A DNA stretch of 64,000 nucleotides from Escherichia coli (GCF_016026235.1 NZ_CP065613.1); one strand, 5' to 3'; shown: positions 41,001 through 64,000, counted from the first letter of the stretch. Numbers: made by a program.

Positions 41001-44000
41001 ATAAAAATGCCCTTCATGTTGTGCATTTTTATCTCGACCCAGCAGGCCTTCACCTAAATAAATTGCTGTCGTTGATGCTTTTGTGCCTGAGTCCGACACC
41101 TTTTCCCAGCCATTACCAACATTGTAATAATGATTGCCCAGTACCCGGCAAATATAGGTCCAGCCACGGGAGCGGAGCTGTTGGAACCATCGCCCCTGAA
41201 AACCGGCATCTGTAATAACAATGACATCAGTCCCGGGGGAAAAGCACTCAGCAAGCGATTCCAGAAAACGCTCATGTACATCTGCATTCGCTGTCTGTGA
41301 TGATGGAACGACACAACTCATCAACGGTAAAGAACGCCCGTCACATGCCAGGCTTGCCCGCAAAAGCTGAAAACGAGAGGCATGATAAGCACTCCAGTCA
41401 ATGAGTATCACAACACGAGACATTCCCCGCGTAATCTTTTGGGTAATTCGCTGAAAAATGGTGGAAACCTCATTTTGCAAATGTCGATTCCCCAACAGTC
41501 GATCCACCCGCTTTATTTTGTTTTTAACTGATGCCGTACCGGTTAAATGACGCCCGATACTGGTAAGTGTGAGGGAAGCGCCATTTATTACAGCATTAGT
41601 TGCGTCAATCAGTGATTTTTGACGGTAAAGATGCAAAGGGGCCAGTATGTTGTTAAGGAAATTTTGGCATAATGAACGTGCAGGCATAGTGGTGATCTCC
41701 TTGAAATTGTTAGCACAATCAATTAGATCACATCTCACTATGCCTGTCTTGTTTTCTGGGGATTCCTCAGGGGCGATCCTCCAGTTCAAATATAAGGTCA
41801 GAACCTGCATGGTTTATATCAGACATCCCTTCACTCCTTTTAAAGTAAATTTGATCATCTGAATTAGTAAAATAAATTCCCACGAATTTGGGGCGCAGGA
41901 CGCCTTGAGAACGGCTTATCTCATTTTCGCAGTCACTATTTAGTCATCGTTCAAACAGAGAAACAGGCCGCCGAAGCGGCCATTTATTATTTATATTTTT
42001 TCCAGCGCAGTGAGTATTTTCTCCGGTGTGAAATGCCATTCGCGTAACCAGATGCCGCATGCATCGTGAATTGCGGTAGCAATCGCCGGAGCTGCGCCAT
42101 TTACACCGATTTCCGAGATCGATTTCGCCCCGAACGGGCCGACTTTATCGTCGCTCGGCACCAGCACAGCGCGGAAATCACGCGGAATGTCACCAATTTT
42201 CGGTGCGCCGTAACTGCGTAAATCACGCGTTAACGGGTGACCTTCGGCGTCATAAATGATCTCTTCGCTCATACTGTGGCCGATAGCACGCAGGGTGGCA
42301 CCGTAGATTTGTCCCAACGCTAACTCTGGATTGACCGGTGTACCGCAGTCCAGCAAGGCGTAGAATTTATCCAGGCGGATTTCACCCGTACGCGTGTTGA
42401 CGGCAACTTCAGCGAAGTTTGCGCCATACGGGAAAGCGAAATCAGGCGTGATATAACTGCCAGTTCCCACCAGTGAACCAAAGCCGGTGCCGGTTTCGCC
42501 TTTATGGGCAATATCCCCGAAACTAACTTCGCCTTTCTTGCCGCGCACGACGCCCGGCGTTGCTAGTTGAACATCTGCCACTGGCTCACCCAACATTTGC
42601 GCGCCGTGGAACAGAATTTTCTCCCGCAGATTTTCCGCTGCCAAACGCGCCGCGTTACCCGAGAAGCAAGTACCGGACGAGGCATATGCGCCTTTATCAA
42701 ACAACGCATGATCGGTATCACCGGAGATAACATGCACGTCCTGCGGTGGGCAGTGCAGCACTTCTGCTGCCAGTTTCGTCACTACAGTATCCAGACCAGT
42801 ACCAATATCCGCACCGCCAGAATGAACGATAAAGGTGCCGTCCGATTCCAGTTTGATCATGCAGTTAGCCTGATCGATATCCGGGATACCCGATTTCTGC
42901 ATGATAATGGCGACGCCGCGACCGATGTGCCAGTCACCATTTTGCGGTTTCGGTGAAGACCATTGGATCATCTCGCGACCCTGACGCAGGATCTCTTCCA
43001 GTGCGCAGCTGGCGGCGGAAGGAACGGAGGTCGGCGCTTTACCTTCACCGATTGCACCGAGAATTTTCAGCTCTTGCCCTTCGTGTACCCGGTTACGTTC
43101 GATAATTTCCAGTTGGTCGATCTGTAACTGTTCAGCCAGTTCCGCTAATGCCATGGTGATAGCGAAGTTACCTTTCGGTGCGCCATAACCCTGATAAGCA
43201 CCATTTGGGCAAATGTTGCTGTAGTAGGTGGTGACCTGGAAATCGACGTTATCGCACGGATATAACGGCAGCGACAGCGCCGGTCCGTTACATGGTACGG
43301 TGAGTGAGTGGTTGCCGTAAGGGCCAGTGTTGGCGCGGAAATCCATCTTCACTGCCGTCAGGCGACCATCTTTTTTCGCTCCCAGTTTGACGGTGACTTT
43401 CGCGACGTGACGAGAGGTGTTAGCAATAAACTCTTCTTCACGGGTGTAGCGGAACAGGACCGGACGCCCGGTCACGCAGGTTGCCCAGGCGCACACTTCT
43501 TCCAGCAGGATGTCCTGTTTGGAACCAAAACCGCCGCCAACTCGTTCTTTAATGACATGAACTTTATGCTGTTTCATGCCCACGAGGCGCGCGACCTGGC
43601 GGCGTAAGTGCCATGGTACCTGGGTGGAGGCGTGGATAACCAGACGATCGCCGTCCATACGAGTAAAGCAGATATGTGTTTCAGTCGGGCACTGCTGCGC
43701 TTGCGTTGAGTTATAGGTTCGCTCAATGATCACATCGGCATCGGCAAAGCCTTTGTCCATATCGCCAATATGACCATGAATACTGGCGGCGATATTTTTG
43801 CGTGGACGAGAACCGATCGGGAAGTTGATGATCATATGCTCGCCGCGCTGGGCTGCATGGCTGTTATCGTCTTCCAGAGTATCTGGCGCACCAGCAACAT
43901 ACACAACCGGTTCATCGTGCACGACAGGCGCATCTTCCGCCATTGCTTCGTCGATCGACATTACCGGTTTAAGCACTTCATATTCAACGTCGATGAGCTT

Positions 44001-62000: not shown

Positions 62001-64000
62001 CGGCCTGAATTCAGGCCGGATATCCTTTTACTTCGTTTTCTCGCAATCCAGAACTGTATTTACAATCATCTGATACCCCGTGCAGCGACAAAGATTTCCC
62101 GCCAGTCCGCGACGAATTTCCGTAATGGTTAATGGCTTCTCGCGTGGTTTCGCCAGCATTGCCGTGGTAGCCATAATCAGGCCAGGCGTACAAAACCCGC
62201 ACTGCACTGCGCCGGATTTCGCATAAGCCTGCTGAACATGAGAAAGTTTTCCGCCTTTCGCTTCACCTTCAAGCGTGCGGATCTCTTTTCCTTCAGCCCA
62301 GGCGGCAAGGTATAAGCAACTGTCTATTGCTGTGCCGTCGACCAGCACCGTACAGGCACCACATTCACCCACGCAGCACCCTTGTTTGACACTTAGCAGT
62401 CCTTGTTCGCGGAGTAATTCCGAGAGCGGCGTGCCTGGTGCGGCATGAAGCTGAAAAGGCATCCCGTTAATGGTGCATTCGATGGTAATTGTTTCGCTGT
62501 GATTCATTGCAATTTTCCCCCCGCCGCGGCGACGGCTTCGCTAATCACTTTTTTGGTCATCGTCTGGATGAGATGCAGACGAAACTCTTTACTGGCCCGC
62601 CATGAAGAACGCGGGGCGACATCTTGCAGGACAGATTCGCTGATAGCTTCCAGCGTTTGCAGGTTTAATGGCGCATTTTGTGCAGTCTGTTCGGCATGTT
62701 GGCAGCGAATCGGCGTTGGCGCGGCAACACCAAATGCCAGGCGTAATTCGCTGAAATTGCCGTTATCCAGTCGGCAATGTGCGGCGCAGCCAATTGTTGA
62801 AATATCCATTGCGTCGCGCATGGCATATTTAAAATGCGCGCTGCCCGCGTGTTCTTTCGGCTGTGGCGGAAAATGAAAGGCGACGAGGATTTCGTCATGC
62901 TCAAGAGACACTTTGCCCGGCCCGGTGTGAAAGCCATTAATCGGGACGAAACGAACACCGCGCGGGGAGTGGATCTCCAGTTTCGCGTCATAAATTAGCG
63001 TTGGCGTGGCAGAATCTGCGCTGGTGGCACCGTTGCAAATATTTCCACCGTAGGTAGCGACGTTACGGATCTGCGGTCCAGCAATGGACGTGGCCGCAGC
63101 ACATAACGCCGGGAGATGACGTTGAGTTATAGGATCTTCTATTAGCTGGGTAAATGTCGTTGCAGAGCCGATACGTAGCGAGCCATCTTCCGCCAGCGTA
63201 ATTCCCCGCAGCTCCGCCAGATTATGAATATCAACAATATGGCGATAACGGTCATTGTGATGGTGGAGCTGAATCAGTACGTCAGTGCCACCGGCGAGCA
63301 GTTTGGCCTGCGGGTTGTCAGCCAGCAGGTTGATGGCATCGGCAAGGGTTGCTGCGCGATGGTAAGAAGCAAAATCAAACATGATGTTATCCTCAAATCA
63401 ATCCTGCCAGATGGAACTCTTCATATAACCGTTTTGGCGTCAGCGGCAGTGTATTGATTGCAACACCGGTAGCCATCTTCACCGCGTTACGAATAGCAGC
63501 GGCAACAGGAATTATTGGTGGCTCACCCAGTGACTTATGTCCGTATGCGGATTGCGGCTCATTGATTTCGACGAACGCGCTTTCCAGTTGTGGCAGATCC
63601 GGCATGGTCGGCATTTTGTAATCCAGCAGATTGGGGTTACGGACCACGCCGCTTTTAGCATCGATGATCATCTCTTCAAATAGCGCCCAGCCAATGCCCA
63701 TTCCCATTCCGCCGTGTACCTGACCTTCTGCCAGCAGTGGATTAAGAATATGCCCTGAATCATGAACGTTGAGGATGCGGTTGATGGTGACTTTGCACAG
63801 CGCAATATCGACCGTCAGATCAACAAAGGTACAGCCAAACGCCGGTGGGTTAGTGGTGGTTTTGATGGAGCTTTCAGCAGAGAGCTGCCCGCCGCGTTCA
63901 GGGTGGTAGAAAGCGTCCATCGCCAAATCTTTTAACGACATTAACGGCTCTTCCGGTCGTTCAACCAGCACGATATGGCCTTTTATCAGGGTCAGATTCA

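Follow-up and report, generated by a model that had tools for sequence, protein, structure and literature searches.

Gene content and integrity of the locus

The window, a 64,000-nt stretch of Escherichia coli DNA read on one strand and numbered from its first letter, carries between positions 41991 and 64000 the genes xdhD-ygfM-ssnA-ygfK, mocA, yqeC-yqeB, yqeA-hyuA-ygeY-ygeX-ygeW, ygeV, and xdhC-xdhB (Table 1). Alignment to K-12 proteins recovered every gene named in the initial annotation where that annotation had placed it. All 15 complete coding sequences align end to end with their K-12 MG1655 counterparts at 98.6–100% identity without gaps, and internal stops were found in none of the 15, which bears out the claim that the cluster is intact. 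The xdhABC set was described correctly as regards xdhB and xdhC; xdhA is incomplete because the window stops at 64000. Curated NCBIfam family cut-offs were exceeded by every complete coding sequence except that of YgeV, for which NCBIfam holds no dedicated model. The hairpin between the convergent yqeB and yqeA has a 10-pair stem, eight pairs of which are GC, and then a T-rich tail.

Of 5426 complete E. coli genomes, 5152 contain at least 80% of the stretch. Presence and intactness of the genes, together with their identity, were established here directly, and we are highly confident that this is E. coli's usual purine/uric-acid catabolic locus, intact in this genome.

Table 1 Features of the cluster and its border, with predicted roles. 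Positions are those of the window.
Feature and predicted role	Position	Strand	Basis
IS4-family (ISEc60-like) insertion sequence	40477-41770	-	transposase matches NF033591; 22-nt terminal inverted repeats
xanQ remnant, first 56 nt	41771-41826	-	K-12 homology begins at 41771
Intrinsic terminator after xdhD, GGCCGCTTCGGCGGCC then T-rich tail	41966-41981	-	
xdhD, Mo/Fe-S subunit of urate reductase (2,8-dioxopurine dehydrogenase)	41991-44861	-	100% identical to K-12, 956 aa
ygfM, FAD-binding subunit, XdhD partner	44858-45637	-	99.6% identity to K-12; TIGR03312 above cut-off
ssnA, amidohydrolase opening the reduced pyrimidine ring	45688-47016	-	98.6% identity to K-12; TIGR03314
ygfK, Fe-S flavoprotein, NAD(P)H:2,8-dioxopurine reductase	47019-50117	-	99.4% identity to K-12; TIGR03315
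sigma54 -24/-12 promoter of ygfK-ssnA-ygfM-xdhD, TGGTGCGATTGTTGCT	50190-50205	-	
Perfect palindrome TTATCATAATGATAA upstream of ygfK, candidate YgeV UAS	50373-50389	.	
mocA, molybdenum cofactor cytidylyltransferase	50439-51017	-	99.5% identity to K-12; TIGR03310
yqeC, accessory protein, selenium-cofactor trait marker	51120-51890	+	100% identical to K-12; TIGR03172 above cut-off
yqeB, XdhC-like maturation domain fused to 'selenium-dependent Mo cofactor' domain	51938-53563	+	99.8% identity to K-12; TIGR03309
GC-rich hairpin, likely bidirectional terminator of convergent yqeB/yqeA	53572-53597	.	10-pair stem, then T-rich tail
yqeA, carbamate kinase (carbamoyl phosphate + ADP to ATP)	53604-54536	-	100% identical to K-12; TIGR00746
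hyuA, hydantoinase, ureidomethyl-hydantoin to 2,3-diureidopropionate	54584-55969	-	99.6% identity to K-12; TIGR02033
ygeY, M20 hydrolase, last ureido group off to 2,3-diaminopropionate	56022-57233	-	100% identical to K-12; TIGR03526
ygeX (dpaL), diaminopropionate ammonia-lyase, to pyruvate + ammonia	57290-58486	-	99.7% identity to K-12; TIGR03528
ygeW, knotted carbamoyltransferase, phosphate-dependent cleavage of 2,3-diureidopropionate	58544-59734	-	100% identical to K-12; NF005538
sigma54 -24/-12 promoter of ygeW-ygeX-ygeY-hyuA-yqeA, TGGCACACTTATTGTT	59825-59840	-	
Crp-like site TGTGATCAACCCCACA	59884-59899	-	just upstream of ygeW promoter; read from sequence
Conserved block GATATCACA...TATCAATATGAGA...TTTATCAAACTG upstream of ygeW, candidate YgeV UAS cluster	60016-60069 (core 60042-60054)	-	
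ygeV (isrR), sigma54 enhancer-binding protein	60210-61988	+	99.7% identity to K-12
xdhC + xdhB, Fe-S + FAD subunits of xanthine dehydrogenase	62028-63382	-	both 100% identical to K-12
xdhC	62028-62507	-	NF007387
xdhB	62504-63382	-	NF007427
xdhA, last 201 of 752 codons only	63393-64000	-	100% identical to K-12 residues 552-752

YgeV and the sigma54 promoters

The dedicated sigma54 activator proposed for the cluster is recognizable in YgeV, which combines a weak GAF match (residues 44–126), a PAS domain (162–206), an AAA+ domain (272–439; PF00158, E = 2e-70) with GAFTGA at residue 347, a lid (445–528), and a C-terminal Fis-type HTH (HTH_8, 548–587; PF02954, E = 3e-13). The domain search returned no receiver domain. 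The −24/−12 elements found here equal the sites that sigma54 ChIP-seq had located for xdhA, ygeW, and ygfK; the ygfK promoter is identical to its site and the ygeW promoter, whose −12 element reads TTGT rather than TTGC, coincides with its own (PMC4591121) and with a gSELEX peak in the ygeV/ygeW spacer. The ygfK promoter is conserved in five enterobacterial loci and the ygeW promoter in the cross-genus spacer alignment; the sigma54 elements stand as invariant islands in spacers only 54–66% identical across Enterobacter, Raoultella, and Klebsiella.

Other groups, working with near-identical K-12 proteins, have demonstrated uric-acid induction and sigma54 occupancy of the promoters. Both ygfK and ygfT are induced by uric acid, indole increases ygeV mRNA, and in baeR and cpxR knockouts the iModulon shows activity with ethanol; the cited literature reports no direct YgeV ligand. 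The GTGA half of the Crp-like site is invariant in the ygeW spacer alignment, and Li et al. (PMC12507026) describe a native Crp site in the ygeV/ygeW spacer together with glucose repression, to which Crp would contribute. YgeV itself would activate the ygeW and ygfK promoters as well as, outside the window, those of xdhA and ygfT.

Where YgeV might bind is suggested by the same spacers. ATTATCA-N3-TGATA is invariant in the ygfK spacer alignment, and the block upstream of ygeW consists of invariant islands in a spacer of which the rest is only 66% identical. An identical 15-mer from that block is present in the K-12 ygfT/uacT spacer, and ygeW, ygfK, xdhA, and ygfT/uacT all have TTATCA-N3-TGA(T/G)A(A) upstream. 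The E. coli palindrome recurs at unchanged positions in four other enterobacterial loci (in Enterobacter, Raoultella, and Klebsiella) and stands beside YgeV-like regulators and sigma54 promoters in Firmicutes (a Clostridium MAG and Sedimentibacter); only four such sites turned up in unrelated loci totalling ~1.1 Mb. This conservation of promoter and palindrome across genera is the new regulatory addition of our analysis. In 2019 this palindrome motif had been predicted for DioR, a sigma54 regulator of Clostridia, of which YgeV is therefore probably the enterobacterial counterpart. From this pattern, YgeV most likely binds TTATCA-N3-TGATAA palindromes, here treated as candidate sites, ~150–250 nt upstream of its promoters.

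The half-site ATTATC/GATAAT coincides with the Fur-box hexamer, so another protein could bind, and the spacers are AT-rich; Fur or another global regulator might thus occupy the palindromes in place of YgeV, or they might be AT-rich bending sites. We regard this as unlikely, because the half-sites have an arrangement opposite to that of the Fur 7-1-7 box and the motif, rare elsewhere, is found together with regulators of the YgeV/DioR type and sigma54 promoters in Enterobacteriaceae as well as in Firmicutes.

The neighbouring rearrangement

The rearrangement reported beside the cluster is real. An IS4-family element sits within xanQ, 220 nt past the xdhD stop codon, where it has truncated xanQ and parted the transporter genes from the cluster; xanQ-guaD-ghxQ-ygfS-ygfT-uacT was not found within the window, so that ygfT and the urate transporter gene uacT lie outside it. 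FDAARGOS_943 carries an IS at the identical xanQ site, 99.9% identical to the one here, and the left-side copy of its 10-bp target duplication is absent here.

A separation of this kind invites the view that the system, its reading frames notwithstanding, is crippled or decaying in an IS-rich lineage, parted from its transporters and ygfST and accumulating null mutations. Besides the truncated xanQ and the xanQ-guaD-ghxQ-ygfST-uacT genes that no longer adjoin the cluster, the closest relative (99.9% identity) carries IS insertions in xdhD and yqeC, and rpoS and cas3 are also disrupted within the same window. However, the 15 coding sequences are intact, as are the two sigma54 promoters, the palindromes, the terminators, and the Crp site, and the displaced genes may be whole elsewhere in the genome. 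We consider decay quite improbable and retain the reading of an intact locus.

Selenium and the selenate reductase label

The XdhC-like part of YqeB spans residues 19–252, and its TIGR03309 match (271–526) is above cut-off. MocA, YqeB, and YqeC would mature the molybdenum cofactor, possibly with selenium added; selD (b1764 in K-12) lies far outside the window. Selenium dependence has been demonstrated only in Clostridia: the C. sporogenes DOPDH needs selenium for activity (bioRxiv 10.1101/2025.04.24.650524), and selenium/SelD dependence was shown genetically in C. difficile. According to Johnstone and Self, SDMHs are likely not made by E. coli. The label “selenium-dependent” is therefore a suggestion that the marker genes yqeB and yqeC make for this locus.

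An older view holds that YgfK-YgfM-XdhD is a selenate reductase and that the cluster serves selenium detoxification or supply, not purine breakdown. RefSeq still calls YgfK a “putative selenate reductase subunit”, the NCBIfam models are named “Se_sel_red_*”, and a 2002 genetic study, cited in PMC2276186, tied the operon to selenate reduction. Purified YgfK, however, reduces 2,8-dioxopurine with NADPH and neither requires nor is stimulated by selenate (bioRxiv 10.1101/2025.04.24.650524), and XdhD-YgfM reduces urate (PMC12507026), which leaves this view highly improbable. We do not use selenate reductase as a name for the locus; selenate reduction may be a side activity.

A reductive pathway from urate to pyruvate

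The literature check proposed in the initial annotation found every enzyme of the cluster assigned, though not the direct YgeV ligand, in work done mostly with K-12 proteins by Li et al. (Life Metab 2025) and Liu et al. (2025), the biochemistry being set out in PMC12507026, bioRxiv 10.1101/2025.04.24.650524, and the commentary PMC12990295. With all enzymes assigned in two 2025 papers, the cluster therefore counts as an established pathway and not as a puzzle, namely that of anaerobic uric-acid degradation; the statement that its substrates and the YgeW reaction had yet to be established has been overtaken, which goes most of the way to the refutation that the initial annotation had set out. 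The purine catabolic role and hydrolytic downstream branch that had been predicted agree with the published urate pathway, as does the prediction that YgeW and YqeA yield ATP from carbamoyl phosphate. With K-12 proteins, urate was shown to be converted to pyruvate via 2,8-dioxopurine (PMC12507026; bioRxiv 10.1101/2025.04.24.650524); this strain is known from its genes, and the steps below are predicted from near-identity to those proteins.

XdhABC would oxidize hypoxanthine and xanthine to urate, which XdhD-YgfM would then convert with NADH to 2,8-dioxopurine. K-12 XdhD carries out this conversion (PMC12507026), XdhD-YgfM stripping the C6 oxygen from urate with NADH (PMC12507026; bioRxiv 10.1101/2025.04.24.650524), and XdhD purifies together with a ~30 kDa protein that is putatively YgfM (PMC12507026). 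The XdhD encoded here has the active-site Glu606 and scores 2123 bits against TIGR03313 (cut-off 1102). YgfK, an NAD(P)H Fe-S flavoprotein whose central part resembles NfnA and dihydropyrimidine dehydrogenase, would reduce the pyrimidine ring of 2,8-dioxopurine; its nicotinamide is given as NADPH only (bioRxiv 10.1101/2025.04.24.650524) or as NAD(P)H (PMC12507026). SsnA, with six substitutions relative to K-12, would hydrolyse the reduced ring to ureidomethyl-hydantoin, an activity demonstrated in coupling with YgfK (PMC12507026). The ygfK and ssnA genes are adjacent with a 2-nt gap, and both products are above their family cut-offs.

The five downstream genes (hyuA, ygeW, yqeA, and ygeY, together with ygeX) are full length, 99.6–100% identical to K-12, and above cut-offs. 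HyuA is predicted to open the hydantoin to 2,3-diureidopropionate, as demonstrated (PMC12507026), also with the C. difficile protein. YgeW, the crystal structure of which is 3q98, would use phosphate to cleave one ureido group and release carbamoyl phosphate; the reaction has been demonstrated (PMC12507026; bioRxiv 10.1101/2025.04.24.650524), with the two 2025 papers disagreeing on which ureido group is attacked (PMC12990295). YqeA would transfer the phosphate to ADP, ATP formation by YgeW and YqeA having been demonstrated (bioRxiv 10.1101/2025.04.24.650524). YgeY probably takes off the remaining ureido group by hydrolysis, leaving 2,3-diaminopropionate (activity in PMC12507026 and PMC12990295), and YgeX would break this down to pyruvate and ammonia (role in PMC12507026 and bioRxiv 10.1101/2025.04.24.650524). 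Carbamoyl phosphate, which had been taken for the end point, is accordingly a side product of a route ending in pyruvate and ammonia through YgeX.

The initial annotation's oxidative molybdenum-hydroxylase pathway for an unidentified N-heterocycle, with substrates and YgeW reaction unknown, is permitted by family-level annotation alone (xanthine dehydrogenase homologues, hydantoinase, transcarbamylase) and reflects what was known up to about 2022, but it has virtually no chance of being right, since in vitro reconstitution and mutant metabolomics already give urate and the reductive direction, XdhD-YgfM deoxygenating urate with NADH and YgfK reducing the ring (PMC12507026; PMC12990295; bioRxiv 10.1101/2025.04.24.650524).

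Comparison with known systems

The nearest solved relative of XdhD is 4-hydroxybenzoyl-CoA reductase (PDB 1rm6, E = 4e-80), in which a xanthine-oxidase-family reaction runs in the reductive, dehydroxylating direction. XdhD has this direction in common with it but differs in substrate and subunit make-up, with N-terminally fused 2Fe-2S domains and YgfM as partner. The order of ring reduction followed by amidohydrolase opening is that of the reductive pyrimidine pathway (PydA dihydropyrimidine dehydrogenase, PydB dihydropyrimidinase, PydC), an analogy also made by Li et al. (PMC12507026). Dihydropyrimidine dehydrogenase chains match the YgfK core and HyuA matches the dihydropyrimidinase model. 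The urate cluster differs in acting on a bicyclic purine that loses its C6 oxygen first, and in removing two rings and two ureido groups. Phosphorolysis of a ureido compound to carbamoyl phosphate, with ATP made by carbamate kinase, links YgeW and YqeA to the arginine deiminase pathway. YqeA matches arcC and YgeW matches OTC-family models weakly; in contrast to ornithine carbamoyltransferase, YgeW is a distinct “knotted” transcarbamylase with 2,3-diureidopropionate, not citrulline, as substrate.

The locus has the same gene set, order, and orientation as xdhA-xdhD of K-12 MG1655 (b2866-b2881), at 99.1–99.2% DNA and 98.6–100% protein identity, and shares its sigma54 promoters and palindromes. 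It lacks a 137-bp element of the K-12 yqeA/yqeB spacer, and downstream of xdhD it has the IS4-family element and the cas3 region where K-12 has xanQ-guaD-ghxQ-ygfST-uacT.

The 2,8-dioxopurine clusters of C. sporogenes and C. difficile follow the same pathway logic, with homologous SsnA, HyuA, YgeY, and YgeX. Both species have the YqeB/YqeC markers, as in E. coli, and C. sporogenes also has YgeW, whereas C. difficile has UacX instead of YgfK and a hydrolytic UacY instead of YgeW and YqeA. Unlike that of E. coli, the clostridial Mo enzyme has no FAD subunit YgfM and probably relies on ferredoxin.

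Gene content and conservation of the cluster

Fifteen proteins of the E. coli K-12 MG1655 locus (XdhD, YgfM, SsnA, YgfK, MocA, YqeC, YqeB, YqeA, HyuA, YgeY, YgeX, YgeW, YgeV, XdhC, and XdhB) aligned with the window end to end and without gaps in tblastn searches, at 98.6–100% identity. None of the 15 coding sequences contains an internal stop, and gene order matches both the RefSeq records and K-12 MG1655. All except YgeV reached the curated NCBIfam cut-off of their own family, the matches of YgeV being restricted to the generic sigma54-activator part of other models. The initial annotation had named these genes as intact and in place, which is borne out for all 15 full-length sequences. 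Its xdhABC set holds for xdhB and xdhC, which are complete, and only in part for xdhA, of which the last 201 codons are present before the window ends at 64000.

The locus belongs among the reductive uric-acid (2,8-dioxopurine) degradation clusters, with every feature that defines the type at the sequence level present. Among 5426 complete E. coli genomes, 5308 match the 22-kb stretch; at least 80% of it lies in one place in 5152. A length difference of ~180 bp across the 22 kb, seen in many E. coli genomes, may correspond to a 137-bp insert between yqeA and yqeB in K-12 (16428–16564 of its locus, L003) that is absent from the window at 53564–53603. An Rfam search of positions 40000–64000 returned no known RNA family. 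Scans for sigma70 promoters and terminators gave hits at chance level overall, and only the strongest hairpins at gene ends were used.

Chemistry of the pathway

Every enzyme of the cluster was assigned by two studies in 2025 (PMC12507026; bioRxiv 10.1101/2025.04.24.650524), so the statement in the initial annotation that the substrates and the YgeW reaction were not established is out of date. Working with E. coli proteins as well as those of C. difficile, Li et al. (Life Metab 2025, PMC12507026) found that XdhD, with NADH as reductant, converts uric acid to 2,8-dioxopurine ('yanthine'), a co-purifying protein of ~30 kDa being taken as YgfM. YgfK and SsnA with NAD(P)H then yield ureidomethyl-hydantoin, with 5-ureido-dihydrouracil as a minor product, and HyuA, assayed as the C. 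difficile enzyme, converts both to 2,3-diureidopropionate (PMC12507026). YgeW removes one ureido group with phosphate, after which YgeY and YgeX lead to pyruvate; XdhABC acts upstream of the pathway, converting xanthine to urate (PMC12507026). Liu et al. (bioRxiv 10.1101/2025.04.24.650524; cited elsewhere as Nat Microbiol 2025;10:2291) arrived at the same pathway by tracing isotopes in C. sporogenes and E. coli mutants and by reconstituting it from E. coli YgfK, SsnA, HyuA, YgeW, YgeY, YgeX, and YqeA. The two papers disagree on whether YgeW attacks the 2-ureido or the 3-ureido group.

Purine catabolism with a hydrolytic branch, as originally proposed, agrees with the assigned urate route, and ATP is indeed formed from carbamoyl phosphate, YgeW and YqeA generating it from 2,3-diureidopropionate (bioRxiv 10.1101/2025.04.24.650524). 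Two parts of that proposal fail. The pathway was taken to be oxidative, but its net balance is a four-electron reduction (bioRxiv 10.1101/2025.04.24.650524), and the route finishes at pyruvate and ammonia rather than in carbamoyl-phosphate-linked ATP.

The closest solved relative of XdhD is 4-hydroxybenzoyl-CoA reductase, a reductive dehydroxylase within the xanthine oxidase family, and the central part of YgfK matches Nfn and dihydropyrimidine dehydrogenase chains. These structural relatives fit the reductive chemistry, and the YgfK match agrees with the PydA analogy of Li et al. (PMC12507026). Because the window proteins differ little or not at all from those tested, and XdhD retains Glu606, the enzyme assignments transfer to them directly. 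The older label 'selenate reductase' is unsupported as the main function, and the activity of YgfK has no selenate requirement despite its annotation (bioRxiv 10.1101/2025.04.24.650524). RefSeq names lag behind the 2025 assignments, with YgfK (47019–50117) still a 'putative selenate reductase subunit' and HyuA a 'D-phenylhydantoinase'.

Sigma54 promoters and a shared palindrome

Sigma54-type -24/-12 elements precede ygeW and ygfK in the window, and a further one lies upstream of xdhA in K-12. All three are exactly the sigma54 ChIP-seq sites of Bonocora et al. (PMC4591121), and a gSELEX peak has also been placed in the ygeV/ygeW spacer. Loose sigma54 matches across the window are not above chance (57 found against 46.7 expected), and only sites positioned before operons and conserved were used as evidence. 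Li et al. (PMC12507026) mention glucose repression and a 'native Crp site', in keeping with a Crp-like site near the ygeW promoter.

Positions of regulatory and mobile elements in the window
Feature	Position	Details
IS4-family (ISEc60-like) element	40477–41770	1.3 kb, 22-nt terminal inverted repeats
Sigma54 -24/-12 element, ygfK	50190–50205	TGGTGCGATTGTTGCT, 72 nt upstream of ygfK
Palindrome, ygfK	50375–50387	
Sigma54 -24/-12 element, ygeW	59825–59840	TGGCACACTTATTGTT, 90 nt upstream of ygeW
Crp-like site	59884–59899	just upstream of ygeW promoter
Palindrome, ygeW	60042–60054	

Comparison of four K-12 upstream regions yielded a TATCA-N3-TGA(G/T)A element. Upstream of ygfK it forms the perfect palindrome TTATCATAATGATAA, the 15-mer ATATCAATATGAGAA is identical upstream of ygeW and in the ygfT/uacT spacer, and the xdhA upstream region holds two close variants. 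Since the pattern was derived from the K-12 sites themselves, it was tested on other genomes. When genome contigs were scanned with full-length YgeV, generic sigma54 activators matching by way of the FLDEIGDM pattern dominated the hits; the scan yielded one enterobacterial orthologue (Enterobacter sp. Bisph1, L004) and two informative full-length Firmicute relatives (L005 and L007). A protein search with the YgeV N-terminus returned mostly fragments and added three usable enterobacterial contigs, from Raoultella (L083), Klebsiella grimontii (L084), and a metagenome (L085); another, L086, is a long-read assembly riddled with frameshifts. The metagenomic contig was used for the ygfK spacer only, given a deletion (9700–10000) that joins ygeV, from residue ~137, to the final 56 codons of ygeW; because the shared regulatory spacer is lost with it, this copy of the cluster is degenerate.

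In the four usable enterobacterial loci, nearly all occurrences of the pattern fall upstream of ygeW and ygfK, at comparable distances, and the palindrome and -24/-12 elements stand out as invariant islands in aligned spacers that are otherwise 66% and 54% identical. In Sedimentibacter, three palindrome copies are followed by a sigma54 promoter and a ygeX-ygeW-ygeY-ygfK-yqeA-ssnA operon, and in a Clostridium metagenome-assembled genome copies lie upstream of ygeY and purine permease genes, in each case with a full-length YgeV relative adjacent. The background was only four copies in ~1.1 Mb of loci around unrelated sigma54 activators.

The motif itself is not new, since sites of the ATTTATCATAATGATAAGG type are listed for the clostridial sigma54 activator DioR in the supplement of Nie et al. 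2019 (PMC6615313). The predicted DioR regulon comprised dpaL-pyrC-argE, ygeW-ygfK-ssnA-ygeY, and xdhABC, with function then marked unknown (PMC6615313). At the level of sequence, the occurrence of this palindrome at promoters of E. coli connects YgeV with DioR, a link that we did not find stated in the literature examined. As a binding site for YgeV it is a candidate. Its 7-3-7 layout resembles NtrC-type sites, and a Fur-like half-site calls for caution in this reading; FNR and IHF, judged by eye, misfit in both spacing and half-sites.

Exact TATCA-N3-TGATA matches also occur within the ygeX (58198–58210) and cysN (27906–27918) coding sequences; neither is conserved in the other genera compared, and both are probably coincidental. 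Raoultella carries an extra palindrome, TATCACTCTGAGA (L083 11809–11821), just after ygeV. It precedes an MFS transporter gene by ~240 nt, and this gene may be an additional regulon member.

YgeV and its signal

YgeV comprises a weak GAF-like region (44–126), a PAS domain (162–206), an AAA+ sigma54-interaction domain in which GAFTGA lies at 347, a lid, and a helix-turn-helix of Fis type; the original view that the cluster has its own sigma54 regulator holds. Because the N-terminus is of GAF/PAS type and a domain search found no receiver domain, YgeV is an activator of the ligand-sensing type, not a two-component response regulator.

On its signal, a point raised in the initial annotation, published reports are indirect. 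Earlier work showed that ygfK and ygfT of E. coli are induced by uric acid; indole increases the mRNA of ygeV, which was renamed isrR; and activity of the YgeV iModulon is seen with ethanol in knockouts of baeR and cpxR. On balance we favor, with moderate confidence, a model in which YgeV is the enterobacterial DioR orthologue, binds the 7-3-7 palindrome (A)TTATCA-N3-TGATAA(T) before four sigma54 promoters (xdhABC, ygeW-yqeA, ygfK-xdhD, and ygfST; perhaps uacT as well), and uses its GAF/PAS region to sense urate or 2,8-dioxopurine, with selenium use in E. coli as a possible second reading. If true, this would supply the missing regulatory logic of uric-acid degradation in E. coli and a handle for turning the pathway on in probiotic strains without promoter replacement.

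Selenium

Selenium dependence was shown for the C. sporogenes enzyme through SelD (bioRxiv 10.1101/2025.04.24.650524) and genetically for C. difficile (selD, yqeB), and Johnstone and Self held that E. coli 'likely does not make' selenium-dependent enzymes of this type. E. coli XdhD possibly carries a labile selenium cofactor matured by YqeB and YqeC, in which case E. coli would be a genetic model for a poorly understood trait.

YqeB is short (~275 aa) in Enterobacter sp. Bisph1 (L004 2477–3271), Raoultella (L083 2522–3349), and K. grimontii (L084 2501–3334), where it comprises the XdhC-like half alone and lacks the TIGR03309 'selenium' domain. The same three loci have no yqeC or mocA between yqeB and ygfK. 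In this variant the selenium accessory system may be unused or encoded elsewhere in the genome.

Rearrangement and left neighborhood

K-12 homology begins at 41771, 56 nt into xanQ, where the IS4-family element ends; the cluster's coding sequences are uninterrupted, as the initial annotation had said of a cluster intact beside a rearrangement. To the left of the element lie the cas3 upstream region and a frameshifted cas3. The closest relative, FDAARGOS_943 (NZ_CP065615.1), is 99.9% identical over the cluster and has the same element at the same xanQ position, with the 10-bp target duplication GGGCGATCCT on both flanks; in the window the duplication is on the right flank only, and the left flank joins the cas3 upstream region. 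The two genes cas3 and xdhD are on the same strand here, whereas in K-12 they lie on opposite strands, ~140 kb apart. Recombination between two copies of the IS, with an inversion as the outcome, would explain this arrangement most simply. This IS/cas3 junction was absent from the complete E. coli genomes of the collection. Owing to the rearrangement, xanQ is destroyed and guaD, ghxQ, ygfS, ygfT, and uacT do not adjoin the cluster.

FDAARGOS_943 also carries insertions inside xdhD and yqeC (L002 6001–9789 and 16048–18128), genes that are uninterrupted in the window; the pathway is therefore being lost in this sister lineage and is intact here. The cas3 gene (37607–40295) consists of two overlapping ORFs in different frames (37607–39280 and 39159–40295) and is apparently a pseudogene with a frameshift. 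Over the cas3/casA stretch (37000–40477) the best matches in E. coli reach only ~96% identity, compared with 99.9% over the purine cluster. Between iap and the cas genes is a type I-E CRISPR array (31306–31648), in which at least six repeats of 29 nt (CGGTTTATCCCCGCTGGCGCGGGGAACAC) recur at intervals of 61 nt. The rpoS gene (20174–21202) appears to have a premature stop, one frame ending after ...VKELNVYL and the remainder lying in a second (20174–20614), which would make it a null or truncated allele. Near-consensus and exact sigma54 promoters at 1229–1244 and 1358–1373 are the published hycA and hypA sites; with an FhlA-like activator at 5059–7173, they identify the left end as the hyc/hyp-fhlA-mutS region.

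Significance and comparison with known systems

Through this pathway gut bacteria dispose of the human urate that reaches the intestine, roughly one third of the total, and the pathway is being built into probiotic strains to counter gout; this significance belongs to the 2023–2025 literature. The initial annotation recognized an interesting locus correctly without the 2025 papers. The pathway is already known, and all that the window contributes is one more intact copy of a locus nearly universal in E. coli, essentially the same as the K-12 locus used for the biochemistry. Clostridial clusters differ from the E. coli type, which has the FAD subunit YgfM and so uses NADH, has YgfK in place of UacX, and employs the ATP-yielding YgeW/YqeA pair where C. 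difficile has the hydrolytic UacY (PMC12507026). The logic of the E. coli cluster parallels that of reductive pyrimidine degradation and of the arginine deiminase pathway.
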